Shown here piece after piece: positions 2,276 through 55,829 of a stretch of 64,000 nucleotides of DNA. Location of the stretch: contig CAYGCZ010000001.1 of the NCBI GenBank assembly GCA_964348495.1, forward strand, positions 7,951-71,950, written 5' to 3'. Every line of letters starts with the position of its first letter. Position 1 is the stretch's first letter. The notes below the pieces were generated by a model that did not search any database, had not been told where the DNA came from, and saw nothing but the letters and a program-made list of their open reading frames with translations. Made by a program: the position numbers and the translations under genes. This stretch comes from an uncultured Candidatus Saccharibacteria bacterium (GTDB lineage Bacteria > Patescibacteriota > Minisyncoccia > Phycocordibacterales > UBA2135).

Positions 2276-2442
2276 AGAGCCTGTTCAAGATCTCGCGGTA
2301 CTCGGTCTGAAAATACAGGTTTTTAGGCGAAACATGAGTCGGAGCACTCGTCGTACTAGTAGTACGACGAGTGCGAGACGAAATTTTGTAGCCAAAAACC
2401 TCGTAGTTTCAGGCTGGGGGAAGATCTTGAACATGCTCTTAG
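2276..2442. repeat. Repeat family A copy 1: ~167-bp element with 17-bp terminal inverted repeats and an internal palindrome (MITE-like or structured ncRNA)
   Basis: About 90% identical to 18756..18922. The ends gagcctgttcaagatct and agatcttgaaca(t/g)gctc are inverted. Internal near-palindrome actcgtcgtactagtagtacgacgagt, plus aggtttttaggc ... gccaaaaacct. Confidence 0.85.
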
Positions 2443-2503
2443 CCCGCATCCGTATCGGAGGCGGTTTTTTAGTTTTTGTTCGACGTGTTTCATTCAGCGA
2501 CGC

Positions 2504-5500
2504 ATGAAAAAGAAATATTTTAAACGCTATCGGGATCCGCGCATCGGCATTCCCAACTTGGTGGAGGCGCAACTTGAGTCCTACCAAGAGCTTCAGAAGA
2601 GCGGGATCAGCTCTCTCTTGAAAGAGTTCTCTCCGATCAGAGACTATTCCGAGAAGAAGTTCGACATGGAGTTCACCAAGTTTGAGCTCGGTGAGGCAAA
2701 GCGTGACGAATTCTACGCCAAGGATCACAAGCTGACCTACGAAGCCCCGCTTCGCGTAACGGTCAAGCTCAAAAACAAGACTCTCGGCACCGAGAACGAG
2801 CAAGAGATCTTTCTTGCTGATTTTCCGTTGATGACGGATCACGGCACCTTTATCATCAATGGCAACGAGCGCGTCATCGTCTCACAGCTCGTCCGTTCGT
2901 TCGGCGTCTCTTTTACGAGCATGCCCCTGAAGGGCAAGATCTATTTCGGTGCCAAGATCATCCCTTCGCGCGGCGCGTGGATCGAGTTTGAGTCGGAGCC
3001 GGACGGCTCTATCGCCGTGCGCATCGACAAGAAGCGTAAATTCCCCATCTCCTCACTCTTGCGCATCTTTGCCTCCGAGCAGAATATTTTCCCTAAACAG
3101 GATGGGTCGGTCGATGAAGCTCTTATGGCCGTCTTCGCCGACGACGAGCATGCGACGGCCGCCCTCAAAGCATCGTTTGCCAAGGACACCGCCAAGACCA
3201 CCAACGACTCCTATATTGAAGTATACAAACGCCTCCGCGACGGCACGCTCGCGACCGCCGATCATGCGCGCGACTTCCTCGCGACGCTTTTTAGCGCCGA
3301 GCGCTACGACCTTTCGCGTATCGGCCGCTACCGCTTCACACAGATGTTTGGCGAGGAGCACAAAGCGGGCGACACTGACAAGCTCTCCTTCTACGACATT
3401 ACGGCGGTCGTCTCGCACATCGCAAAGCTCAATAATACGCCCAATGCCGAGGCCGACGACATCGACCACCTCGGCGTACGCCGCGTGCGCTTTGCCGGTG
3501 AGATGCTTCACAACCGCTTGCGGGTGGGTATGACGCGCATCAAGCGCAACGTCCAGGACCGCATGTCGACGGTTGATCCGGAGACGACCCTGCCGATGCA
3601 GCTTTTGAACCCGCGCCCCCTCCAAACATCACTCAAAGAGTTCTTCAACACAAGTTCGCTTTCGCAGTACATGAACCAGAAGAACCCGCTCGACGAGCTT
3701 GAGCACCTGCGGACGCTCTCGGCTCTCGGCCCCGGCGGCCTCACCCGCGAGCGCGCGGGCTTTGAGGTGCGCGACGTGCATCCTTCCCACTACGGCAAGG
3801 TCTGCCCCATCCACACGCCCGAAGGCCAGAGCATCGGCCTCGTCTTGCGCCTCTCCATCTTCGCCCGCATCAACGACTTGGGCATCTTGGAGACGCCCTA
3901 CGCACGCGTCAAGAATGGTGTGATCACGAGCGAGATCATCTACATGGACTCGCTTGCGGAAGAGCGTCACAACATCGCGCATGCCGCGACACCTTCGGAT
4001 GAGAAGGGTAAAATCTCCGTCGACTTCGTCGAGGTCCGCACCAAGGACAAGCGCGGCGAAGTAACCCTTGTACCTGTTGAAGAGGTGGAGTTTATCGACA
4101 TTGCGGCCAATCAGCCCTTCTCGGTGGCGACATCGCTCATTCCCTTCTTGGAGCACGACGACGCGAACCGCGCTCTGATGGGTTCTAACATGCAAAAACA
4201 AGCGGTGCCCTGCATCGTGCCGCATATGCCTCTCGTTGCAACAGGTATGGAGGGACGCGCCGCCGTCGACTCCGGCCGTCTCGTGCTCGCCAAGGAGAGC
4301 GGCGTCGTCGCCGCCATGGACGCTTCGTCCGTTACGGTGAGGAACGACAAGGGCAAGGATATCGAGCACCGCATGGTCAATTTCGCCCGCACCAACGACT
4401 TCTCAGTATTTCACCAGCGTCCGATCGTGGAGATGGGTCAGAAGGTGAAGAAAGGTGAGCCGCTTGCCGATGCCGCCTCGACGGTTGATGGTGAGCTCGC
4501 GCTCGGTCAGAACGTCCTTGTGGCCTTCATGTCATGGGGCGGTTCCAACTACGAGGATGCCATCATCCTTTCGGAACGTCTTGTGCGCGACAGTGTCTTT
4601 TCATCAATCCATCTCGAAGAGATCGAGGTCGCAGTGCGCGATACAAAACTCGGTCCCGAAATGACTACCCCCGATATCCCGAACATCGGCGAGGGCAAGC
4701 TCAAAGACCTCGATGAAAGCGGCATTGTGCGCATCGGTGCCGAGGTCGGCCCCAACGACATTCTCGTGGGCAAGATCACGCCCAAAGGTGAGGCGGAGCT
4801 GACTCCCGAAGAGCGCCTCTTGCGCTCGATCTTCGGCGAGAAGGCGCGCGACGTAAAGGACACCTCAAAGCGTATGGAGCACGGCAAGCGCGGTCGTATC
4901 ATCGGCATCCGCGAGTTCTCGCGCGAGCGCGGCGACAACCTCGAGTCGGGCATCATCAAGCGCATCAACGTGGACATCGCGCAGTTGCGCAACGTCTCGG
5001 TGGGTGACAAGCTCGCCGGACGCCACGGCAACAAGGGTGTCATCTCAAAGAGCCTTCCGATCGAAGAGATGCCCTACACAAAGGAGGGTACTCCGATTGA
5101 CGTCATCTTGACGCCGCTCGGCGTTCCTTCGCGCATGAACTTGGGTCAGATCCTCGAGTTGCACCTCGGTCTTGCGGCCAATACGCTCAAGTACCAAGCC
5201 ATCGTGCCGCCGTTCCTCGGCGCCACGGAGGGCGAGATTCGCGAGGAGCTCAAAGAGGCCGGCTTCAACGAGAACGGCAAGATGACCCTCTACGACGGAC
5301 GCACCGGCGAAAAGTTCGATCAGGATATCGCCGTCGGATACATGTATGTGCTCAAACTGCACCACATGGTCGAGGACAAGATCCACATGCGTTCCATCGG
5401 TCCTTACTCGCTCATTCACCAGCAACCGCTTGGCGGCAAGGCGCAGGGCGGCGGTCAGCGCTTCGGAGAAATGGAGGTCTGGGCACTCGAAGGATACGGC

Positions 5501-13542: not shown

Positions 13543-16500
13543 ATGAAAGAGGGGAAGTTCAACGTACTCTACCGCAAACTCAACGCCGAGCAAAAGGCGG
13601 CGGTGGATGCGATCGACGGGCCGGTGATGGTGATTGCCGGCCCGGGCACCGGCAAGACGCAGATACTCACCCTGCGTATCGCCAACATCTTGCGCACGAC
13701 CGACACCTCACCCGACTCCATCCTCGCCCTTACGTTCACCGAGGCCGCCGCCGCCAATATGAGAAAGCGCCTCGTCGCCACGATCGGCTCGGCGGGGTAT
13801 CAGGTGAACATCTCCACCTTCCACGGCTTTTGCAACAAGATCATCCAAGAGTATGCGGAGCGCTTCCCGCGCATCATTGGCTACAACAACGCCTCGCAGG
13901 TCGATCAGATCGACCTTATTCGCAGCGTTCTTGAATCACGCTCCTTTACCTACCTCAAACCCTTCGGCGATCACTTCTTTCACGTCTCCAATATCGTAGG
14001 CGGCATCCGCGATCTCAAAAAAGAAGGCATTTCGGTCGCGCATTTCAAAGAGATTATCGCGCAGGAAAAAGAGGCGCTTCTCGCGCGCGACGATCTCTAT
14101 CACACAAAAGGTGCGCATAAAGGCAAGATGAAGAGCGAGGCGCAAAAAGAACAAAAGATTCTTGAAAAAAACGAAGAGCTCGCGTATTTTTATGAGGTGT
14201 ATGAGCGCGAACTCGCCGAACGCAAACTCTACGACTTTGAAGACATGCTTCTTGCCGTTATCGGCGAACTTGAACACAACAAGGACTTTCTTTTGGAGCT
14301 CCAAGAAAAGTACCAGTATATTCTTGTTGATGAACACCAAGACACCAACGGTGCTCAAAATAAAATACTCGAACTTCTCGCGAGCTTTTTCCCCAACCCC
14401 AACCTCTTTGTCGTCGGCGATGAAAAACAGGCGATCTTTCGTTTTCAAGGCGCAAGTTTGGCAAACTTTTTGTATTTTAAGGACACCTTCCAAGGCGTGC
14501 GCCTCGTGAGTTTGGTGCACAACTACCGCAGTACGCAGTCCATCCTTGATGCCTCACAAAGTCTGATTGAGCACAACGCAATCAAGCCGCTCTCATCACC
14601 CTTGAGGGCGGCAGGGAAGGGGCCTGCCCGCCCCGCAAACGATAGCGTTGCGGGCGGGAGTCCGATCGATATCTACTCCTTCAACACCGAAGAAGGTGAA
14701 CGGCTTTTCATAACCGAACGTGTCGCCATGCTCATCGCCGAGGGGGTGCCAGCCGACGAGATCGCCGTTCTCTACCGCAACAACAGCGATGCGTTTCCAA
14801 TCGCCGAAGATCTTGAGCGCGCGGGTGTTCCTTTTGTCGTCGAATCCGACCGCGACATCTTGGGTGATGTCGATATTCGCAAGTTCAATACACTCATAAC
14901 GGCCATCGGCACCTTTGGCAACGACGAAGCACTCGTCAAGGCATTTCATATCGACTTTCTCGCCATCAATCCGCTCGTCGTCTATCGCGCGCTTGGTGCG
15001 GCAAAAGAAGCGCGCATGAGTTTGCATGCCTTTCTCGACATAGCCGCCGCGTCAAAAGGAAAGAAAAAAACAAAAGATCCGCTCGTCGCGCTCTATGGCA
15101 AGATACGTGCATGGAAAACACTGAGCCACAACACCGATTTTCTCAATTTCTTCACTACCGTCGCACGCGAATCCGGACTCATCAATCACCTTATCGCGCA
15201 TCCGCACCGTGTCGAAAAGTTGGACAAAATAGGCGCCCTCTACGATGAGATCGCGCATATCGTCGAGCACCACAGCGATTACTCGATTACCGAGTATCTC
15301 TACTACCTCGAAGTACTCGAACGTCATGGTGTGATGATCAAGGCGCGTTCTCGCCGCATGGGGAGTTCCGTGCGCCTCATGACGGCGCACAAGGCAAAAG
15401 GACTCGAGTTTGAACACGTCTTTGTTATCGGTGTCTACGATGGTCATTGGGGCAACAAACGCTCGATGGCGACCTTTCGCCTCCCGACGCGCATCAAAAC
15501 CATCGATACCGAGGGTGAGCGCAACGAAGACGAACGCCGACTTTTCTATATGGCGCTCACGCGCGCCAAGACGCATGTCATCGCCACCTACGCGCGTCAT
15601 GGCGCGGACGGCAAAGAGCGCGTGCCGAGCCAATTCGTGGGTGAGATACATGAGGAGCTTCGTGTTGAACACGACGGCGAAGAGTACGATGCTCGCGTCA
15701 AAAAAGAAGCGCGCTTCATGCCGCGCGCCGAGGGCGAAATCACCGATGTTGCCGCCTTTCTCAAAGAACGTTTCGTAGAGCAAGGCCTCTCACCCACGGC
15801 GCTCAACAACTATCTCACCTGTCCCTGGCGTTATTATTTCAACAGTTTGGTGCGTATTCCGCTCGCGCCCGGCTACCATCAGACGTACGGCATCATCATG
15901 CACAAGGTACTTGAAGAATTCTTCAACGCGCGCTCACCCTTGTATGTCGAAAAGCACGCCGACGCGCCAGGATCGGGGGAGGAGGCCGGTGCCGACTTTA
16001 TGGAAAAGCGTTTTATCTACCATCTCGATCGCCGCCCCATAAACGAGCGTCTCTATGAAGACCTCAAGAAAAAAGGTATCGAGACGTTGCGTGCTTATCA
16101 CGAGGCGGGACATCAAACGTGGAACTACAACACCGTCAACGAATACTATATCAAAGGTATTGAAGTCGGCGGGGTCAAGCTCACCGGTAAATTAGATAAG
16201 CTTGAGCTCGAACTCGATGGCGAGCACGTGCTCGTCGTAGACTACAAAACCAAAAAGCCGCAGAGCCGCAACTGGATAGAGGGTGCGACCGCCTCCGCCG
16301 ACGGCAACTTCAAGCGCCAGCTCGTCTTCTACAAACTCCTTTTGGACGAGATGCCGCATGGCAGGTATGTCATGCGCGCGGGCGCGATAGACTTTGTAGA
16401 ACCCGACGAAAAAGGCCGTTTCAAGCGCGAGGTTTTTGAGATAACCGACGAAGAAGTAATCGCTCTCAAAACCGAAATCGCCCGCGTCGCCGAGGAGATC

Positions 16501-44534: not shown

Positions 44535-46199
44535 TCAAACAAGACCGCGCACCCCATCTTTTGCCTTCATGCCGGAAAGGGGAATGGAGATGAAAAAGAC
44601 CGTGCCGCGATGTTCGGTCGATTCGAACCAAATACGCCCACCGGATTGTTCCATGATCGCTTTGACGATATAGAGCCCGAGGCCCGACCCGTCCGGATCG
44701 ATCAATCGCGCGTTGTCGGCGCGAAACATCTTGGTAAATATCTTGCCTTGTTGTGCAAGAGGGATGCCATGCCCGGTGTCGCTCACTTGTATAATAAGTG
44801 AGGTATCTTCTCGTCGCGTTTCAACGGAGATCGAGCCGCCGGCATTGGTGTATTTGATCGCGTTAGAAAGGAGATTTTGGATCACGGCACGCACAAGTTG
44901 ATGATCCAGAAGGACCTCCGGTATCACCCCGTAGGACTTTGTCAGTGTCAGATGTTTATTCTCCATGATGCCGGCAACCTCGCGTAAGGTCTCTTCGATA
45001 AGTTCGTTGACTTGAAGCGGTTTGGGAACGATGGCGAGCGTGCCCAGCTCAATATGCATCGCATTCAACATCGCATTGACAAGGTGTAATAATTGGCGGT
45101 TGCTTGTGGTGATGCGCGAAAGTCCCTCTACGACAGGTTGAGGCAGGACACTGCCCGGATATTGCTCCAAGAGCATCGAACTGTATCCTCCGATGATGGT
45201 AATGGGCGTGCGGAGTTGGTGGGTGGCAAGCGCAATAAACTCTTCGCGCGCTTTTTTGAGTTCATATTCTTTGGAGATGTCGCGAAAGACGATAATGACT
45301 CCCATGAGTCTGCCGGTAGGGTTGAAGATGGGTGCCGCACTGTCGCCAAGGGGGATCTCCACGCCCGACTTGGTGGTAAGCAGGGTGTTGTTATTCATGT
45401 AGGTTACCCGCCTCAAGTCCATCGCTTCTTTGATAAACCCCATGTTCTCCGCGCGGTCTTCGGCGCGTATCAACTTCATGATATTGCGGAACGGTTTACC
45501 AAGCACCTCGTCCTTATCCCATCCGGTAATGCGCGTCGCACTGCGGTTCCAGACGGTGATCGTCCACTCGGGATTGATGACGACCACGCCGTCGCCGATA
45601 CTTTCAATGATCTGGTTTAAGTTGTGAAACTCGCGGTCGCGCAAGGTCGTCATGCGACGAACGGTCTCAGTCGCACCTCTCAGGAGGACATAGATGTTCT
45701 GCAAGGTCTCTTGATCGAACGATCCTTCATCGGGGGTGGAGAGGTTGATGAGTACAGCAAGTGTTCCGGGTATGATCAGGGGAACATTGACATGTGAACG
45801 AGGGGATGCTTCGAGCGCAAGGGCGGTAGTGCCGGTTGTGCGTATATCAAGACGGAAATCGCTCTTCAGCCATTGCTGAAGGATGGTTTCGCGCACGCTT
45901 GGCAGGGTTGAAAGACCCAGAAAGAGATCTTCTTTGATTGTTGCTATATACACTTCTCCAATCGTGTCAGTAGCGGGAACGCGGATGTAGAGTAAGTCGG
46001 CGGGGATGGAGGGATCAAGCGGCGCTATGGCATAACTGACGATAATGCGCGGGAAAAGTTTTTGAATCGCGGTCGTCACATGTTCCATCACCTCAGTCAT
46101 ATCAAGACTGCCGCTCAAGGCCTGGTAGAGGTTTTTAATCGCTTCAAGTTCGGCAACTTTGCGTTCAAGTTCAAGGGATGATCTGGTGATCGTGTTCAT
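44535..46199 (-). CDS. cytoplasmic sensor histidine kinase (GAF-like/PAS + HisKA + HATPase)
   Basis: H-box ATHQLRTPITIIGGY, G-boxes DTGHGIP and GSGLGL, and a PAS segment with WNRSATRITGW. Confidence 0.85.
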   Translation of the reverse strand: MNTITRSSLELERKVAELEAIKNLYQALSGSLDMTEVMEHVTTAIQKLFPRIIVSYAIAPLDPSIPADLLYIRVPATDTIGEVYIATIKEDLFLGLSTLPSVRETILQQWLKSDFRLDIRTTGTTALALEASPRSHVNVPLIIPGTLAVLINLSTPDEGSFDQETLQNIYVLLRGATETVRRMTTLRDREFHNLNQIIESIGDGVVVINPEWTITVWNRSATRITGWDKDEVLGKPFRNIMKLIRAEDRAENMGFIKEAMDLRRVTYMNNNTLLTTKSGVEIPLGDSAAPIFNPTGRLMGVIIVFRDISKEYELKKAREEFIALATHQLRTPITIIGGYSSMLLEQYPGSVLPQPVVEGLSRITTSNRQLLHLVNAMLNAMHIELGTLAIVPKPLQVNELIEETLREVAGIMENKHLTLTKSYGVIPEVLLDHQLVRAVIQNLLSNAIKYTNAGGSISVETRREDTSLIIQVSDTGHGIPLAQQGKIFTKMFRADNARLIDPDGSGLGLYIVKAIMEQSGGRIWFESTEHRGTVFFISIPLSGMKAKDGVRGLV

Positions 46200-46259
46200 A
46201 GGAGTAGGCGGGTGTCGTCTTCATCTCTGTGTCCGTAGAGTGTTCAGCAGACGCATCGT

Positions 46260-46838
46260 TTACCGAGGGAGGACGATAACGCCACCGAGTGATTGTATTT
46301 CATGGATCAGCTCGGTATTGGCGGATGATTGTGAGACAAGTGAGACAATCCCCGTCGCTCCGTGTTTCCTCAGAAGAGCGTGAATTTTCTTGATGAATGT
46401 CTTGGTCAGATCAAGGGCATTGTAAAGCAGGATGACGGTGAGCGAGTCGAGGAAGACGAATTTTTTTGAAGGATCGCCCTCAAGATGCTTTTTGAGTTCG
46501 TCGAATATCTGATCCAGTGCGAGTGGTCCGGAGACGTAGGTAACGCCAGACGTTTGCGACTCTCCGATGCCATACATGTGGGCGATACCATCGATGAATT
46601 TTATAGAGCCGACCTGTACACCTTCGCGCGCCATCGTGGCGGCTATTTCGCCATAATCTTTGGTTAAGGTGATATAGATGCCCATGTAGCCGAGGTCTTG
46701 CATGGTCTTGACCGATAGGATGTTTTCGGAGGTCGCGTTCTCAAGCGTACCTTTCAATACAATAAGCGAACCGGTCGCCGCCTCAGTGAGATGTTGCGAA
46801 AGTTCACGCGAGGGAGGGGTATGCGTTTCTATGGTCAT
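46260..46838 (-). CDS. KaiC-like (RecA-superfamily) single-domain protein with degenerate Walker A
   Basis: GSLIVLKGT replaces GxxxxGKT. The rest aligns with a KaiC/RadA-type domain, e.g. FVFLDSLT. Confidence 0.45.
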   Translation of the reverse strand: MTIETHTPPSRELSQHLTEAATGSLIVLKGTLENATSENILSVKTMQDLGYMGIYITLTKDYGEIAATMAREGVQVGSIKFIDGIAHMYGIGESQTSGVTYVSGPLALDQIFDELKKHLEGDPSKKFVFLDSLTVILLYNALDLTKTFIKKIHALLRKHGATGIVSLVSQSSANTELIHEIQSLGGVIVLPR

Positions 46839-46883
46839 AAGGGTGATAATAAAACAGAAAGACGATGTTGGACGTAGTGGCGA

Positions 46884-48587
46884 CTATTGTTCAAGCACTT
46901 TTCGAAGCTGATCAACATATTCTTTGTTGCGACGGGCGGAAATAATACCCTGATCGCCAAACTCCTGGATGAGTTTTTGAATCCTGCTCGGTGAGAGGCC
47001 TTTGCGCTGTTCTTCTTTGAATATTTTTTCTCCCAATGGCCCCCATATTTCGGTGAGAAGGTCGCGGAGTTGTTCTTCGATGGTTTTACTCACTTTGCGT
47101 ACCTCTCCTCCAAGTGCGCCTTCATAACCGCTAAACGAGGTGAGTACCTGCAGACCCTTCTCGGTAAAGATGAACTCGCGCAGTTTTTTGTCGTGAGCGG
47201 AGGCGCGAATCTTCAAGAGCAGAACGCCATGTTTGATTTCGGATTGCACTTCGATGAAACGCAGAAGAACGATCGTATCGTAGAAGGTTGAAAGATGCGC
47301 CTCAGTGATCTCGCCTGCGCCGAGGATACCCGATGTGGCGGCGGTGAAATATGATGTGGTACCTTTGTTTTTGCAGTAATTGATGAGGCGCGATGAAAAA
47401 TCGGGAAGACTTTCGGGGGTAAAGACATGTTCCAATGCCGACAGTGAATCTACAACAATACGATCAGCGTCAGATGCTTCCAGTGCTCGGGTGATGGATT
47501 GCAGGTGTTCTTCCATGTAACGCTCCTCGGGATAGGCGCAGATAATCTGCAAAAGACCCTCTTTTTCAAAGCGGGCGAAGTCCCAACCGAATGAGCGTGC
47601 CGTGTGCATCAATTGATCACGCGACTCCTCAAAAGAGACGAGTAAGGCGCGTTCGCCCCGCTTCAAGCCGGAAGCAAGAAAATGAAGACCCATGATGGTC
47701 TTACCCGTACCCGAGGCGCCGCTTACGAGAATCGTCGATCCCTTAAGATAGCCGCCACCCGTCATGGCGTCTAAACCTTCAGGACCTGTGGATATCCGCT
47801 CTTCCGAGATGGGGTAGGATAATTCGCGCTCCAAACGAGGGAAGATGGCGATGCCGGTACGACTGATGCGAAAAGCAGCAGGTGATTGCTCGTAATCAGT
47901 GCCGCGCATCTTCACAACTTCAAGTTGGTGGCTTGAAGCACTTCTTGTTTTTACGAAGGATAGGCGGATGATGCCATCGGAGATGAACTCTTCTGTCCCG
48001 AAAACGCTCAACTCGGCTCCGGGTGTTTCGCTCGTGAGGATGATGTTGACATCCTGTTGGGAGAGGGCGGTGCCGATCTGGAAGATGAAGTCGCGGACCT
48101 TGCTCCTGTCCTTCAAATGGTAGGCAATCGCAGTAACGGAATCCAAAACAACGCGTTTTGCTCCCGACTGGGCGACCATATTTTTTATGGTCTCCACAAT
48201 ACGCCCTATATCCTCAAACGAGAACTCATCTTTGGTGATGTCGAGACCCTGCATGATGCCACGCAGGTCGGTGAAGTACACCTGCAGAGGCCCCACGGCG
48301 GTAGGATCGAAGAATGCTAGTTTTTTGGCGTTGCGTATCGCCTTGGCGACCGGCTCCGTAAGTGAGATATAAATACCCGGCTCGTGATATTGTTGATAAC
48401 CCTCAAAGAGCCATTGTGTCGCCAAAATAGTCTTGCCGGTGCCGGACTGTCCCGACAGGAGGACGGCAGATCCGATAGGAATTCCGCCATGGAGGAGATG
48501 ATCAAGTTCAATAATGCCGGTTTGTTGTTGACCGCGCGTCGTATCGCTCACCCCCGTCGCAGTATGCAAGGTCATGTTGTGGGTCAT
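46884..48587 (-). CDS. kaiC: KaiC-family double RecA-domain ATPase
   Basis: Two domains with Walker A LLSGQSGTGKT and VSGASGTGKT, and Walker B VVLDSVT and IVVDSLS. Confidence 0.8.
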   Translation of the reverse strand: MTHNMTLHTATGVSDTTRGQQQTGIIELDHLLHGGIPIGSAVLLSGQSGTGKTILATQWLFEGYQQYHEPGIYISLTEPVAKAIRNAKKLAFFDPTAVGPLQVYFTDLRGIMQGLDITKDEFSFEDIGRIVETIKNMVAQSGAKRVVLDSVTAIAYHLKDRSKVRDFIFQIGTALSQQDVNIILTSETPGAELSVFGTEEFISDGIIRLSFVKTRSASSHQLEVVKMRGTDYEQSPAAFRISRTGIAIFPRLERELSYPISEERISTGPEGLDAMTGGGYLKGSTILVSGASGTGKTIMGLHFLASGLKRGERALLVSFEESRDQLMHTARSFGWDFARFEKEGLLQIICAYPEERYMEEHLQSITRALEASDADRIVVDSLSALEHVFTPESLPDFSSRLINYCKNKGTTSYFTAATSGILGAGEITEAHLSTFYDTIVLLRFIEVQSEIKHGVLLLKIRASAHDKKLREFIFTEKGLQVLTSFSGYEGALGGEVRKVSKTIEEQLRDLLTEIWGPLGEKIFKEEQRKGLSPSRIQKLIQEFGDQGIISARRNKEYVDQLRKVLEQ

Positions 48588-52612: not shown

Positions 52613-52755
52613 GGGGACACCTCGCTTTTTTTAGGTTCTGGCTAACACTAACATGAGATAGGTAACACAGTACTGCCATAAGTATAGCAAACTATTTTTC
52701 AGAGAGTGGGGGTGGTGTAGATATCCGGGGATGGCGAGGTGACGGTGCGAATGTC

Positions 52756-52764
52756 TGCTATACT
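52756..52764 (+). promoter_or_regulatory. extended -10 promoter (TGcTATACT) 6 nt before the ATG, giving a leaderless mRNA
   Basis: tctgctatactgtcggtATG. The identical arrangement is found at 54240-54248. Confidence 0.45.
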
Positions 52765-52770
52765 GTCGGT

Positions 52771-53484
52771 ATGAACACATATAACAACAAGTACATCATT
52801 GCGGGGGTTGTTATTGTTTTTATTACCGTTGCGGGGATCTTATCGGTGCGCGGTGAACAAAAGGCGCCCGTTGCTCTGTCACCGGAGCGGGTATACACCG
52901 ATACAGAATATGACTACCACATTACCTATCCTGCAGATTGGCAGGTGAGCACCACGACACTCTTGATCAATTCTGGTGAGGCGGTTGTCGTGTTTCCTGC
53001 GGAACTCGTCGCCTTTCCAGAATGTCAGCAGAGGTTTGAAAAACTGCTTGAAAATCATAAGCAATACAATCCTATCGTTTCGGAAGCAAGCATCTACGAC
53101 AGCGCCCGTGCCGAATCGTGCAGTATTGGCATTACAACGTACAAAAATCCTCAGCATCTCTCAATCAAGGATTTCTTGCAAGATGGTTTTATGCGCGGTA
53201 CGGCATATCAGCAAGCCGATCTTGACCTCATTGCCACACTCACCACGGAGAAGACCGGCAGAGGTGAGGAAGTACTCTCCGATACGGCGTTCTATCTCCA
53301 CGGCTTTGGCGGAGGATATGATGGCGAGGTCGTCCCGGGCGTTATTGTGGGAAAACAGCAATTTATTATTGCGCATAATGATACGATTCTTTTTGTGCAC
53401 AACTCTATCAACCCCACCGATGCAACACTTCCCGGCAGTCACGATATTTTTGAAAAACTAATCAAAAGTATCACCTTCAATTAA
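52771..53484 (+). CDS. membrane-anchored secreted protein, paralog A (YNNKYIIAGVVIVFI N-terminus)
   Basis: N-terminal signal-anchor shared with 54255..54824, followed by YDYHITYPADW. Confidence 0.55.
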   Translation: MNTYNNKYIIAGVVIVFITVAGILSVRGEQKAPVALSPERVYTDTEYDYHITYPADWQVSTTTLLINSGEAVVVFPAELVAFPECQQRFEKLLENHKQYNPIVSEASIYDSARAESCSIGITTYKNPQHLSIKDFLQDGFMRGTAYQQADLDLIATLTTEKTGRGEEVLSDTAFYLHGFGGGYDGEVVPGVIVGKQQFIIAHNDTILFVHNSINPTDATLPGSHDIFEKLIKSITFN

Positions 53485-53519
53485 AAAAAGCCCGCGATAC
53501 TCGCGGGCTTTTACTGGTG

Positions 53520-54071
53520 TCACCAATAGTAATTCAGGTTTGAAGGATCAAGGAAGTACTCGGGGTAGGCAGGATCTCCTCCGCATGAAGTATTTTCAGG
53601 AAGTCGACCCCTGTTGGCGATATTGGAGTAAGAAGTATTTCGCACTCCAAAATGAAGATGGGATCCTCCACTATGGTTGTTCACCTCTCCTATCTTTTGT
53701 CCCATGGATACCGATTGTCCGTAACTCACGACTGGTTTGATGTGATGATAGGTGCTCGTCCATGAACTGTGTGAGACGGTAACAAAGTTTCTCTCGTCAG
53801 AGGGATTGTTGTTGTATATCACAACAACCGCTATTGTCCCCGCGTATGCGCTTTCCACTTTTGTGCCGATGGGTGCGGATATATCAATCGCTGTATGAAG
53901 CTGGCGATTGCTTCCGCAATACTGGTTTTGCCAGTGTTCTCCCGGGACGGAGGTAATGATCCATGTATCGGGTAGGCCTGGCAACGGCCATTCTAGGGTG
54001 GGGATAGCCATACACACACTGCTGATAACGGCACATCCTAGAAACAAACATGCTTTTTTGAACAGTTTCAT
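53520..54071 (-). CDS. M23-family metallopeptidase (secreted), copy 1
   Basis: Signal peptide, HTAID (HxxxD) and GSHLHFGV (HxH) motifs. Confidence 0.75.
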   Translation of the reverse strand: MKLFKKACLFLGCAVISSVCMAIPTLEWPLPGLPDTWIITSVPGEHWQNQYCGSNRQLHTAIDISAPIGTKVESAYAGTIAVVVIYNNNPSDERNFVTVSHSSWTSTYHHIKPVVSYGQSVSMGQKIGEVNNHSGGSHLHFGVRNTSYSNIANRGRLPENTSCGGDPAYPEYFLDPSNLNYYW

Positions 54072-54178
54072 CTCACACCTCCTCGGTGTTTTTGGTTAAA
54101 GAACAAGAAAGAACACAACAACAAAAAACGGGGGCCATGTGCCGCGCAGAGCGCAGTACACAACCCCCGTTAGTGTTG
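54072..54178 (-). promoter_or_regulatory. conserved ~107-nt 5' leader with stem-loop, shared by both M23 genes
   Basis: Near-identical to 55441-55550. On the mRNA strand there is an aacggggg...cccccgtt stem, then ccaaaaacaccgaggaggtgtgagATG. Confidence 0.55.
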
Positions 54179-54239
54179 GGGGGTACTGTAGCATGAGCTA
54201 GAAATTTTTGCAAAGTTGAGATAAAAAAGTGTGGCAATC

Positions 54240-54248
54240 TGCTATACT
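54240..54248 (+). promoter_or_regulatory. extended -10 promoter, leaderless arrangement
   Basis: tctgctatactggcgatATG. Confidence 0.45.
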
Positions 54249-54254
54249 GGCGAT

Positions 54255-54824
54255 ATGAAAAAATATAACAACAAGTACATCATCGCTGGGGTTGTTATTG
54301 TTTTTATTGTCGTGGCAGGCGTGTTGCTCGCGCGTGGCGGGGGTGATGAAGGAGTATGGAAAGCACATTCTGAAATAGTTGACGCCACCCATACAAAATA
54401 TATCAACGAAACCCTTGGTTTTTCATTGGTATATCCCTCTGATGTATATCTGGATGATGATGCGCGCCGTCGATCGGTCATCGTCACGACGCTCGCTCCT
54501 GATGATTCGTTGCGGAGAACCGATGCGTTCATCCTGAATTCTCTGCATATCGCACTGCATTCAGAAACAGACTATGCGACATTCGTGCGAGACTATCAAA
54601 CTCGCTCAAGAGAAAAGGATACCTACCCTGACATGATTCTTACGGAAACGCATGTTGCAACATTTCCTGCGGTCCGTGTCAGTTATACAGATCCGTTTTC
54701 CGGTAGTCCCGCACTCCTTTTTATAGTCAATGGAGTACAAGGGGTTTTTACCGTGAGTTATTTTGTCGATGCTGACAACGCCGAAATATATGAAAAGATA
54801 CTCGATGACATGATCCGCCTCTAA
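54255..54824 (+). CDS. membrane-anchored secreted protein, paralog B
   Basis: MKKYNNKYIIAGVVIVFIVVAGVLL...GFSLVYPSDVY. The ATG at 54255 lies inside the ORF 54231..54824. Confidence 0.55.
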   Translation: MKKYNNKYIIAGVVIVFIVVAGVLLARGGGDEGVWKAHSEIVDATHTKYINETLGFSLVYPSDVYLDDDARRRSVIVTTLAPDDSLRRTDAFILNSLHIALHSETDYATFVRDYQTRSREKDTYPDMILTETHVATFPAVRVSYTDPFSGSPALLFIVNGVQGVFTVSYFVDADNAEIYEKILDDMIRL

Positions 54825-54879
54825 TTTTTGAGAGACACTAAAAAACGGCTCTGCGTAGTGCAGGGCCGTTTGCGCTCCA

Positions 54880-55440
54880 TTAATTAGGATTGTTTTCGTA
54901 TTGAAGCGACATCGGATTTATAAAAGAACTCGGGAATGCGGGATAACCACCACAAGCAGTTTGTGGTAATGCTCCTACATTGGAGGCGTTTGAATATGCC
55001 GCCTCTCGGACACCAAAATGAAAATGAGTGCCACTTGCAAGGTATCCCACATACCCAATGAGTGATCCTTTATTCACCCACGTATTTGCTGATACAGCCG
55101 GGTTAATGTGCCAATAGACCGTCGTCAATAAGAAGGTGTGTGTCGGTGCATGGTCTATCGTTACAAAACCGACCCATGTTGAGTTGGTCTGTGCCACTTT
55201 TACCCATCCGTCATATGCGGCATATACCGGCTCACCAACGTATGACTCAACATCAACGCCCGTATGTTTTTTAACAAGTCCGTTGCAGTATCCCTCATAC
55301 CAATTACTACCAAAGGAGTAGCCGGTAACAGTCCTATTTTTGATATTTCCTGAAACCGGCGACTCTAGCGTCCATGCCGATGCAATGGTTGTGGAAAATA
55401 CAAGGACAAGAGCGACAACAATTTTTGAAAGAACATTCAT
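54880..55440 (-). CDS. M23-family metallopeptidase (secreted), copy 2
   Basis: HTGVD and GTHFHFGV motifs, with the C-terminal ACGGYPAFP resembling copy 1. Confidence 0.75.
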   Translation of the reverse strand: MNVLSKIVVALVLVFSTTIASAWTLESPVSGNIKNRTVTGYSFGSNWYEGYCNGLVKKHTGVDVESYVGEPVYAAYDGWVKVAQTNSTWVGFVTIDHAPTHTFLLTTVYWHINPAVSANTWVNKGSLIGYVGYLASGTHFHFGVREAAYSNASNVGALPQTACGGYPAFPSSFINPMSLQYENNPN

Positions 55441-55550
55441 CTCACACCCCCTCGGTGTTTTTGGCTAAAGAACAAGAAAGAACACAACAACAAAAACGGG
55501 GGCCGTGTACTCCGCGCCGAAGCGTTTCGTACACAACCCCCGTTAGTGTT
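55441..55550 (-). promoter_or_regulatory. second copy of the conserved M23 5' leader
   Basis: See 54072-54178. Confidence 0.55.
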
Positions 55551-55602
55551 GAGACTAGAGTAACATAGGGGAGGGGTGGGTGCAATGCTCTGTATGGTAA
55601 AT

Positions 55603-55699: not shown

Positions 55700-55783
55700 A
55701 TGTTTATTCATCAAAACGGCGGCTGTGACGGCGACGGTAGTTGCGGAGACGGCCAATCAGGCGGTACCGGCTGCGGTCATTAG
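55700..55783 (+). CDS. 27-aa Cys/Gly/Asp-rich peptide MFIHQNGGCDGDGSCGDGQSGGTGCGH
   Basis: GAGGAG RBS 7 nt upstream, a promoter upstream, and a perfect terminator immediately downstream. Not in the ORF track because it is under 60 aa. Confidence 0.5.
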   Translation: MFIHQNGGCDGDGSCGDGQSGGTGCGH

Positions 55784-55795
55784 AACAGGCGCACA

Positions 55796-55829
55796 GGCCA
55801 CCATCAAGAAGATGGTGGCCTTTTTTATT
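55796..55829 (+). terminator. intrinsic terminator
   Basis: ggccaccatc-aagaa-gatggtggcc followed by ttttttatt. Confidence 0.8.

Follow-up and report, generated by a model that had tools for sequence, protein, structure and literature searches.

Two tandem M23 peptidase-partner modules in a Candidatus Saccharibacteria contig share a near-identical, strongly folded 5' leader

The locus described here lies within a 64 kb stretch of DNA (the window) from contig CAYGCZ010000001.1 of an uncultured Candidatus Saccharibacteria bacterium. It comprises two tandem units, in each of which a plus-strand gene for a membrane-anchored protein (the partner) converges on a minus-strand gene for a secreted M23 peptidase. 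The two peptidase genes carry near-identical 5' leaders that open with a strong hairpin, and the origin and possible role of these leaders are our main subject. All coordinates are those of the whole window; transcription starts, RNA stability, termination and gene conversion are predictions from sequence. The open reading frames (ORFs) of the two units and the elements that control them are:

52771-53484, plus strand: partner1, an ORF of 237 amino acids (aa) with an N-terminal transmembrane helix and a predicted PsbP-like ectodomain, of the type paired with pep1
53486-53512, both strands: partner1-pep1 bidirectional intrinsic terminator, a 12-bp GC-rich stem with an A-run and a T-run at its sides
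53520-54071, minus strand: pep1, 183 aa, a signal peptide and an M23 metallopeptidase with intact HxxxD and HxH motifs
54072-54177, minus strand: 5' untranslated region (UTR) of pep1, leader copy 1, 106 nt, recognised by its fold and its identity to copy 2
54185-54213, minus strand: predicted pep1 promoter, with -35 TTGCAA (54208-54213), a 17-nt spacer and extended -10 TGCTACAGT (54185-54193)
54255-54824, plus strand: partner2, an ORF of 189 aa with an N-terminal transmembrane helix and a predicted PsbP-like alpha-beta sandwich, of the type paired with pep2
54840-54872, T-run on the minus strand: partner2-pep2 terminator hairpin, as read from the sequence
54880-55440, minus strand: pep2, 186 aa, a secreted M23 metallopeptidase
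55441-55550, minus strand: 5' UTR of pep2, leader copy 2, 110 nt, recognised by its fold and its identity to copy 1
55557-55585, minus strand: predicted pep2 promoter, with -35 TTGCAC (55580-55585), a 17-nt spacer and extended -10 TGTTACTCT (55557-55565)

The start of partner2 is placed at 54255 (MKKYNNKY...), and neither at the GTG at 54231 nor at 54267. An earlier note on this DNA had described a duplicated convergent cassette of membrane-anchored protein and M23 peptidase, and the ORF layout bears this out.

Both peptidases can be assigned to family M23 as ordinary members. Matches to Pfam Peptidase_M23 (PF01551) have E values of 5e-16 for pep1 and 1e-15 for pep2 (59.1 and 57.9 bits; the cut-off is 28.7 bits), and the profile of the peptidase family matches solved M23 structures (zoocin A, LytM and lysostaphin chains) with E values down to 1e-14. 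In an alignment of 21 sequences that includes both window peptidases, H59, D63, H111, H139 and H141 are invariant, and the catalytic set of HxxxD, central H and HxH is kept in both. The Pfam match and the invariant catalytic columns agree with the earlier claim of secreted M23 enzymes, ~185 aa in length, in which both motifs (HxxxD and HxH) are intact. Inactive peptidases, which the earlier note gave as grounds on which its proposal would fall, are not what the sequences suggest, as the catalytic residues are retained. The two proteins are 35% identical to each other and have separate sets of orthologues, at 68-70% identity for pep1 and 59-72% for pep2. One homologue, 43% identical, carries the label Candidatus Parcubacteria. 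A profile search for relatives in representative genomes identified none, and a search of viral contigs gave two distant matches only.

Partner1 and partner2 are alike in their first ~25 residues only, and the remainder cannot be aligned. Partner1 can be aligned from end to end (31% identity, E 1e-38) with the partner of a pep1 orthologue in another contig (L088); it is nearer to this protein than to partner2, and the alignment of the family shows the same split. A hidden Markov model (HMM) of the partner family also matches partner1. With this model, a convergent partner 20-80 nt downstream of the peptidase gene was identified in at least 13 independent contigs, a count that takes in loci outside the set from which the HMM was built. 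Peptidase and partner co-diverge as a pair, and the comparisons support a putative functional partnership between them. Given the separate orthologues of each unit and the co-divergence of the partners, the two units are ancient paralogues that separated long ago.

At the DNA level the two units share only two islands of high identity, recovered both by aligning them globally and by a separate, independent search for repeats; elsewhere the alignment is at background (17-33 identical positions per 60 columns). Island i is the peptidase leader. It consists of two pieces, 54067-54133 against 55436-55502 (94% identical) and 54156-54178 against 55529-55551 (100%), and the hairpin tip between them is ~83% identical or worse. 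Island ii covers the 5' ends of the partner genes over 82 nt at 88% identity. It includes ~21 codons, and most third positions are identical between partner1 and partner2:

52754-52835, plus strand: island ii copy 1, with extended -10 TGCTATACT (52756-52764), 6 nt, ATG and ~21 codons of the partner1 anchor
54238-54319, plus strand: island ii copy 2, with extended -10 TGCTATACT (54240-54248), 6 nt, the ATG at 54255 and codons of the partner2 anchor

Each piece of the leader is present exactly twice in the window, where shuffled sequence gives an expectation of 0. Island i begins within ~2 nt of the predicted transcription start and ends at ATGAA. Because it spans the distance from predicted start to ATG, the conserved block corresponds to the whole 5' UTR, with the start taken from the promoter consensus. 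Neither the promoter spacer upstream of island i nor the coding sequence downstream of it is conserved between the units. The ~107 nt of near-identity upstream of both peptidase genes noted earlier is thus confirmed, at 94-100% over ~110 nt with the exception of the tip. A dispersed palindromic repeat or MITE is not supported, as there are two copies only in the 64 kb window, both at peptidase genes. We also looked for the leader elsewhere, as an exact 22-mer in species-representative genomes and as two patterns in viral contigs, and found no matches.

The origin of the islands can be narrowed. The earlier note had conceded that its case would be lost if the leaders were simply part of a very recent segmental duplication with identical flanks. 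The coding sequence on one side and the promoter spacers on the other show background identity only, and these flanks, together with the orthologues that each unit has of its own, rule out a recent segmental duplication. The converse argument of the note, that a leader kept while coding sequence drifts indicates long-term constraint, is not supported either: orthologues at ~70% identity have differing leaders, and the partner island covers synonymous sites. More precisely, the window leader sequence is absent from orthologous leaders in other contigs, and the N-termini of orthologous partners differ. Synonymous sites gain no protection from selection on a membrane anchor, so island ii points to a recent shared ancestor, by conversion or a partial copy, and parsimony extends the same process to island i. 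Together, the differing orthologous leaders and the span of the partner island over synonymous sites make recent conversion the better explanation of the near-identity. We propose that homogenisation of both 5' ends was recent and specific to this lineage, with gene conversion as the most likely route. Within island i the changes are unevenly spread, with ~10 in the 25 nt of the hairpin tip and ~5 in the remaining ~90 nt, and pairing is kept throughout. The ends of the island at the predicted start and the ATG, and the confinement of variation to a tip in which pairing is kept, argue that selection also acts on island i.

Upstream of both leaders, on the minus strand, lies TTGCA(A/C), separated by a spacer of 17 nt from an extended -10, TGCTACAGT for pep1 and TGTTACTCT for pep2. 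The -35 and -10 hexamers match and are equally spaced in the two copies, and the spacer and discriminator are not conserved. Consensus places the starts near 54177 and 55550 (minus strand). The window encodes an RpoD-type sigma factor, which makes a sigma-70-type reading of these promoters reasonable. A promoter inside the conserved block (TTGTTC...TTTAAC) was ruled out because it has no acceptable -10.

The leader hairpin begins ~7 nt after the predicted start. In copy 1 (54127-54171) it has a folding energy of -34.5 kcal/mol (z -5.6) and in copy 2 (55494-55544) of -37.2 kcal/mol (z -6.0). The stem is 16-20 bp long including U.G pairs, and the variable tip holds a further small inner stem, built of GCGC/GCGC around a 3-nt loop in one copy and of CGC/GCG around a UUCG loop in copy 2. 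At the base of the stem, ACGGGGGUUGUGUA(C) pairs with (G)UACA(C/U)GGCCCCCGU, with several U.G pairs, and the outer CAACA pairs with UGUUG, so that the outer pairs reach the predicted start and leave no 5' overhang. The stem is followed by U6 (54123-54128) in copy 1 and U5 in copy 2, and behind the U-run lies a pyrimidine tract, GUUGUUGUGUUCUUUCUUGUUCUUUA, with a direct repeat of 10-bp period, TGTTCTTTC/TGTTCTTTA. The strong Shine-Dalgarno (SD) sequence, GGAGGTG in copy 1 and GGGGGTG in copy 2, lies inside a 5-bp hairpin (ACACC/GGTGT). The GC stem (aacggggg/cccccgtt) with a variable loop that was pointed out earlier is therefore present, and the length of 8 nt given for it is too short. Folds of the opposite strand are weaker (-28.5 kcal/mol for copy 1 and -31.4 for copy 2), the mRNA strand being ~6 kcal/mol more stable because of its U.G pairs. 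This bias favours RNA structure on the mRNA strand. In part, then, the functional cis-RNA of the earlier note is upheld, as a strand-specific structured element recognised by fold energy and strand bias. No other gene in the window was found to have such a leader, and many are predicted to be leaderless.

Two other readings of the block were tried and rejected. A leader peptide, ...FCCCVLSCSL(T/A)KNTE(E/G)V*, with its stop 1 nt before the ATG, fails because the two copies disagree in its start and in its frame on the upstream side of the U-run. An integron attC-like site is not supported: core sites are poor, each unit consists of two genes that have promoters of their own, and no integrase is encoded nearby.

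We compared ~13 leaders, the two window copies and 11 retrieved from other contigs. An extended -10 followed 3-9 nt later by a hairpin was identified in L083, L086, L087, L088, L090, L092, L093, L037 and the held-out L094; with the window copies, 11 of 13 leaders (nine of the 11 others) have this arrangement, relative to predicted 5' ends. For these nine other loci, the folding energy across the first 40 nt lies between -6 and -17 kcal/mol. The hairpin of L011 lies behind a TTGACA-N17-TACACT promoter that lacks the TG extension, and in L089 the sequence behind the extended -10 folds no better than shuffled sequence (z -1.06). Four of these hairpins from other contigs (consensus GTCRGTTG-ATTGR-CAACYGAC and variants) can be aligned and have compensatory double changes in five of eight pairs. 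Among 36 promoter-like sites with a downstream ORF, taken from the window and the retrieved contigs, the M23 leaders are the most structured, with lower 5'-proximal fold energies than the 29 other sites (Mann-Whitney p 7e-4). A 5' hairpin after the promoter is a recurring feature of the leaders of this peptidase clade.

In orthologous leaders the hairpin is often followed by UUGUUCUUU. The 9-mer TTGTTCTTT or a near variant lies between hairpin and SD in both window copies (54098-54106 and 55467-55475, minus strand) and in L088 (142-150), L093 (185-193), L004 (2935-2943) and L087 (796-804); the variants of L083 and L094 are TTGTTCTTG and GTTCTTTC. The M23 genes in which it recurs come from different lineages. 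There are three copies of TTGTTCTTT in the window against 0.46 expected, and at the leaders it belongs to the 10-bp-period repeat. Candidate roles for it are that of a U-tract in a terminator, of a standby or S1 site for the ribosome, or of a site for a protein.

The same palindrome could instead act as DNA, with a dimeric repressor bound over both transcription starts and the RNA hairpin incidental. Its position at +1 to +45 is typical of repressor sites. The four aligned hairpins share sequence as well as symmetry, and symmetric changes are expected for palindromic operators too; the repeat TGTTCTTTC/TGTTCTTTA, with its period of 10 bp, resembles a response-regulator site in our own reading. 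However, arms of 6-20 bp and spacers of 3-18 nt across loci, and tips of different length in the window, are unlike a fixed footprint. Where the stem is mismatched, the mRNA has G.U and the complementary strand A.C, with a bias of 6 kcal/mol, and no regulator gene is adjacent to the locus. We consider an operator very unlikely.

A second possibility is that the leaders have no special function, the identity being a by-product of patchy conversion and the hairpin a dispensable structure of the UTR. The partner island, a conversion or recent copy even at synonymous sites, speaks for this, and the exact leader sequence was found in this genome alone among the collections searched. The limits of the block nevertheless match the predicted start and the ATG, and both copies keep the hairpin although their tips are different. 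A 5' hairpin also recurs across the clade, with compensatory changes, and is enriched relative to other promoters. For these reasons we hold an absence of function to be highly improbable.

The main rival is a regulated leader, either an attenuator, in which the hairpin and U-run terminate most transcripts, or a translational switch, in which an arm of the hairpin pairs with the ribosome-binding site (RBS) of its own gene. Whether it is ON or OFF would depend on a signal, for which temperature, a protein, cleavage by RNase and a small RNA are candidates. The attenuator that the earlier note suggested is conceivable, as the hairpin with U5-6 resembles an intrinsic terminator. A U-rich run directly after the stem, as in the window, is also present in L011, L093, L083 and L088, and the SD lies within a small hairpin in both window copies. 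An arm complementary to the cognate SD and start was identified in window copy 2 (-16.9), L086 (-10.6), L087 (-9.0), L083 (-8.0) and L088 (-7.5). In four of these five loci the cognate site ranks first among 9-10 ribosome-binding windows; shuffles give p values of 0.005-0.04, and the combined p by Fisher's method is ~1e-3 to 2e-4. Yet the pattern was noticed prior to testing, is absent in window copy 1 (p 0.57), L093, L092 and L037, and failed in the held-out L094. Between the window copies the energy of this pairing differs by 7 kcal/mol through one base (GGAGG versus GGGGG), and in L086, L087, L092 and L037 there is no U-run after the stem. The 5' hairpin is also far more stable than any alternative pairing and is the first to form during transcription. 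As for a conditional element for attenuation, we found no competing helix in minimum free energy or centroid folds, the frame of the upstream ORF is not conserved and the arm-RBS pairing is inconsistent. Nor is there room for a sensor upstream of the stem, or a conserved antiterminator helix. We judge a regulated leader of either kind unlikely.

The narrower suggestion of a riboswitch-like element is not borne out. The Rfam scan proposed in the earlier note gave no matches at the gathering threshold over the whole 64 kb window, and at E<=10 no match within the locus overlaps either leader. Sub-threshold matches to Leu, Trp and Thr leaders at 53436-53568 correspond to the terminator hairpin between partner1 and pep1. 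The leader hairpin starts only ~7 nt into the predicted transcript, and the leader has no space left for an aptamer. No conserved multi-helix ligand pocket was identified: the window leaders have a single helix whose tip is free to vary, and orthologous leaders have a hairpin of 6-12 bp only.

We tentatively favour, as the best single account and at slightly less than even odds, a cis-acting 5' stabiliser that doubles here as a leader terminator and was recently homogenised, so that both peptidase genes would be under the same control. A sigma-70-type promoter (TTGCA-N17-TGnTAC..T) would fire ~7 nt upstream of the stem-loop and yield a transcript with a fully paired 5' end, and this terminal stem-loop may shield the peptidase mRNA from 5'-end-dependent decay. 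The terminator role is proposed because the stem is GC-rich and followed by U5-6. Such a hairpin, located between the predicted promoter and the start codon, has the structure of an intrinsic terminator (U6 in copy 1, U5 in copy 2). It would probably end part of the transcripts and so damp or gate read-through into the peptidase gene. The partner genes, by contrast, would be expressed from leaderless mRNAs. On this account the 5' regulatory ends of two ancient paralogous modules were homogenised, most likely by gene conversion, and brought under one control; the near-identity would not stem from a constancy of every base since the duplication.

Several points weigh against the stabiliser-terminator account. 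The transcription start comes from consensus prediction only, and a very strong terminator-like hairpin in its own leader is an odd stabiliser. The U-run right after the stem occurs in only ~5 of 11 leaders from other contigs, so termination is not family-wide. A single conversion tract over the whole UTR should have left the tip identical, and the tip has ~10 changes in 25 nt. Nor would random conversion be predicted to end at the start site and the ATG, a hint that the UTR is selected as one piece. In the collections scanned we found no close relative of this genome with which the homogenisation could be dated.

The partners differ from the peptidases in how they appear to be expressed. TGCTATACT lies 6-9 nt before the ATG of the partner genes and of several other window genes, and partners in other contigs have the same leaderless-type promoter arrangement. 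Partner mRNAs are thus predicted to be leaderless, and leaderless mRNAs seem common in this genome. An extended -10 of the form TGCTA(T/C)ACT occurs 6-9 nt before the start codons at 13543, 33460, 34496, 52771 and 54255, which belong to unrelated genes.

We identified 18 homologues of partner2 by exhaustive search among 1.8 billion representative proteins; a word-indexed search with partner2 returned that protein alone. Pfam PsbP_2 (PF18933) matches five of 14 partner-family members (best E 2.6e-11). Of the window partners, partner2 falls below the threshold of this family (E 0.058, 13.8 bits, cut-off 27) and partner1 has no match to it. An AlphaFold2 model of partner2 from a 14-sequence alignment has a pLDDT of 90.4, against 38 for a single-sequence model, and its top Foldseek matches are PsbP, PsbP-like proteins, BT_1490, LpqN, DcrB and EagT6. 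From this model, the partner is predicted to be an N-terminal membrane helix joined to an extracytoplasmic PsbP/Mog1-type sandwich. Residues 40-82 of partner2 (the region of the YxN..GFS..YP motif) are matched in 14 separate stretches of P0044, a protein of 1894 aa, so this segment exists also as a tandem repeat unit in another protein.

In other contigs the module occurs in a variety of settings. In L083 (contig NODE_3059 of sample ERZ23366319, positions 2349-5208) it lies inside a ribosomal-protein operon, between rplB (L2) and rpsS (S19), with its partner gene co-oriented with the operon and with its own terminator and leaderless promoter upstream. No direct repeats or target-site duplications were found to flank this insertion. 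The arrangement in L084 is like that in L083. A fragment of a DDE transposase gene (L089:1069-1503) is located ~400 nt upstream of a pep1-type module. The transposase and the L083 insertion suggest that the module moves between genomic contexts. L094 encodes, beside the downstream convergent partner, a second and weaker partner-like ORF upstream of the peptidase gene (2318-2881, minus strand; HMM E 1.9e-8).

Polymorphic effector-immunity loci swap variable cores by recombination at homology arms, and the two islands could be handles of this kind, used to exchange the peptidase and the ectodomain core of the partner. The islands flank both units, with ii at the partner end and i at the peptidase end ([ii -> partner ... 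peptidase <- i]). The co-divergence of peptidase and partner types and the unrelated contexts, such as rplB-rpsS in L083 and the neighbourhood of a DDE transposase in L089, are in keeping with exchange. However, neither the window nor the searched collections hold a third copy of either island, and orthologous modules lack these island sequences. There is also no recombinase nearby, and no repeats flank the L083 insertion. We give cassette exchange little credence. A broader scheme, which we regard as quite unlikely, would make the whole a mobile, polymorphic and previously undescribed module of Patescibacteria-like bacteria, composed of a lytic enzyme and its cognate inhibitor. A leaderless mRNA would supply the inhibitor constitutively, a clade-specific leader with hairpin-arm-RBS pairing and UUGUUCUUU would gate the peptidase, and the conserved ends would serve both as control regions and as swap handles.

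Other features of the window were noted in passing. A small ORF with a good RBS (55700-55783, plus strand) lies directly upstream of the pep2 promoter and divergent to it, and a clean intrinsic terminator (55795-55821) follows. It encodes a 27-aa Cys/Gly-rich peptide, MFIHQNGGCDGDGSCGDGQSGGTGCGH, that could be a metal-binding or precursor peptide. At 44535-48587 (minus strand), ~5-8 kb from the peptidase locus, we identified genes for a PAS-domain histidine kinase and a KaiC-like double-domain ATPase; no response regulator and no tie to the peptidase-partner module were seen in this region.

Among known leaders, base pairing at the 5' terminus and 5' stem-loops are established stabilisers of mRNA, for example in the ompA and aprE leaders (PMC3997798). 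Escherichia coli ompA and Bacillus subtilis aprE resemble the window leaders in having a stable hairpin, little or no predicted 5' overhang, a strong SD and a secreted or envelope product. A hairpin at the very 5' end of the message is the geometry that defines such stabilisers, and the leaders of this peptidase family would share it if the predicted starts are right. Unlike them, the window hairpin is much longer (16-20 bp), is followed by a terminator-like U5-6 and has no sequence similarity to either. Leader terminators and attenuators, such as those recovered by Term-seq and those of trp, leu and T-box genes, also have a GC-rich stem and U-run between promoter and start codon. In contrast to the trp, leu and T-box leaders, those of the window lack antiterminator and anti-antiterminator helices, a conserved leader peptide and an aptamer. 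Should the leader indeed govern stability or read-through, it would provide compact, shared post-transcriptional control of two diverged cell-wall hydrolases, amid many leaderless mRNAs.

The two-gene module can be compared with lysostaphin/lif, zoocin A/zif and the periplasmic effector-immunity pairs of secretion systems: a small secreted enzyme, here an M23 domain with intact metal ligands, is tightly linked to a second gene with which it co-diverges. The linkage and co-divergence that mark effector-immunity pairs are found here, in at least 13 contigs and with partner types that follow peptidase types. Lif and Zif are cytoplasmic peptidoglycan-modifying enzymes of the FemABX type. The window partner, unlike these, is membrane-anchored and extracytoplasmic with a predicted PsbP-like fold, and the window peptidase has no targeting domain. 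The role of the partner as an immunity or targeting factor that the earlier note put forward is speculative. In a full-text search of the literature we found no report tying PsbP-like proteins to an M23 peptidase. The M23 peptidase and PsbP-like partner form an unannotated, conserved module in many uncultured lineages, and one that is a candidate for cutting the peptidoglycan of the cell itself or of its host without self-killing.

With proteins of the PsbP/Mog1 fold (cyanobacterial PsbP, DcrB, LpqN, BT_1490 and the DUF1795 Eag chaperones) the partner shares Foldseek probabilities of 0.87-1.0 (E 8e-5 to 2e-2), whereas TM-scores to these chains are just 0.28-0.49 and identities 9-16%. Set beside these known systems, the M23/PsbP-like module and the clade-specific plan of its leader are the parts most worth follow-up.

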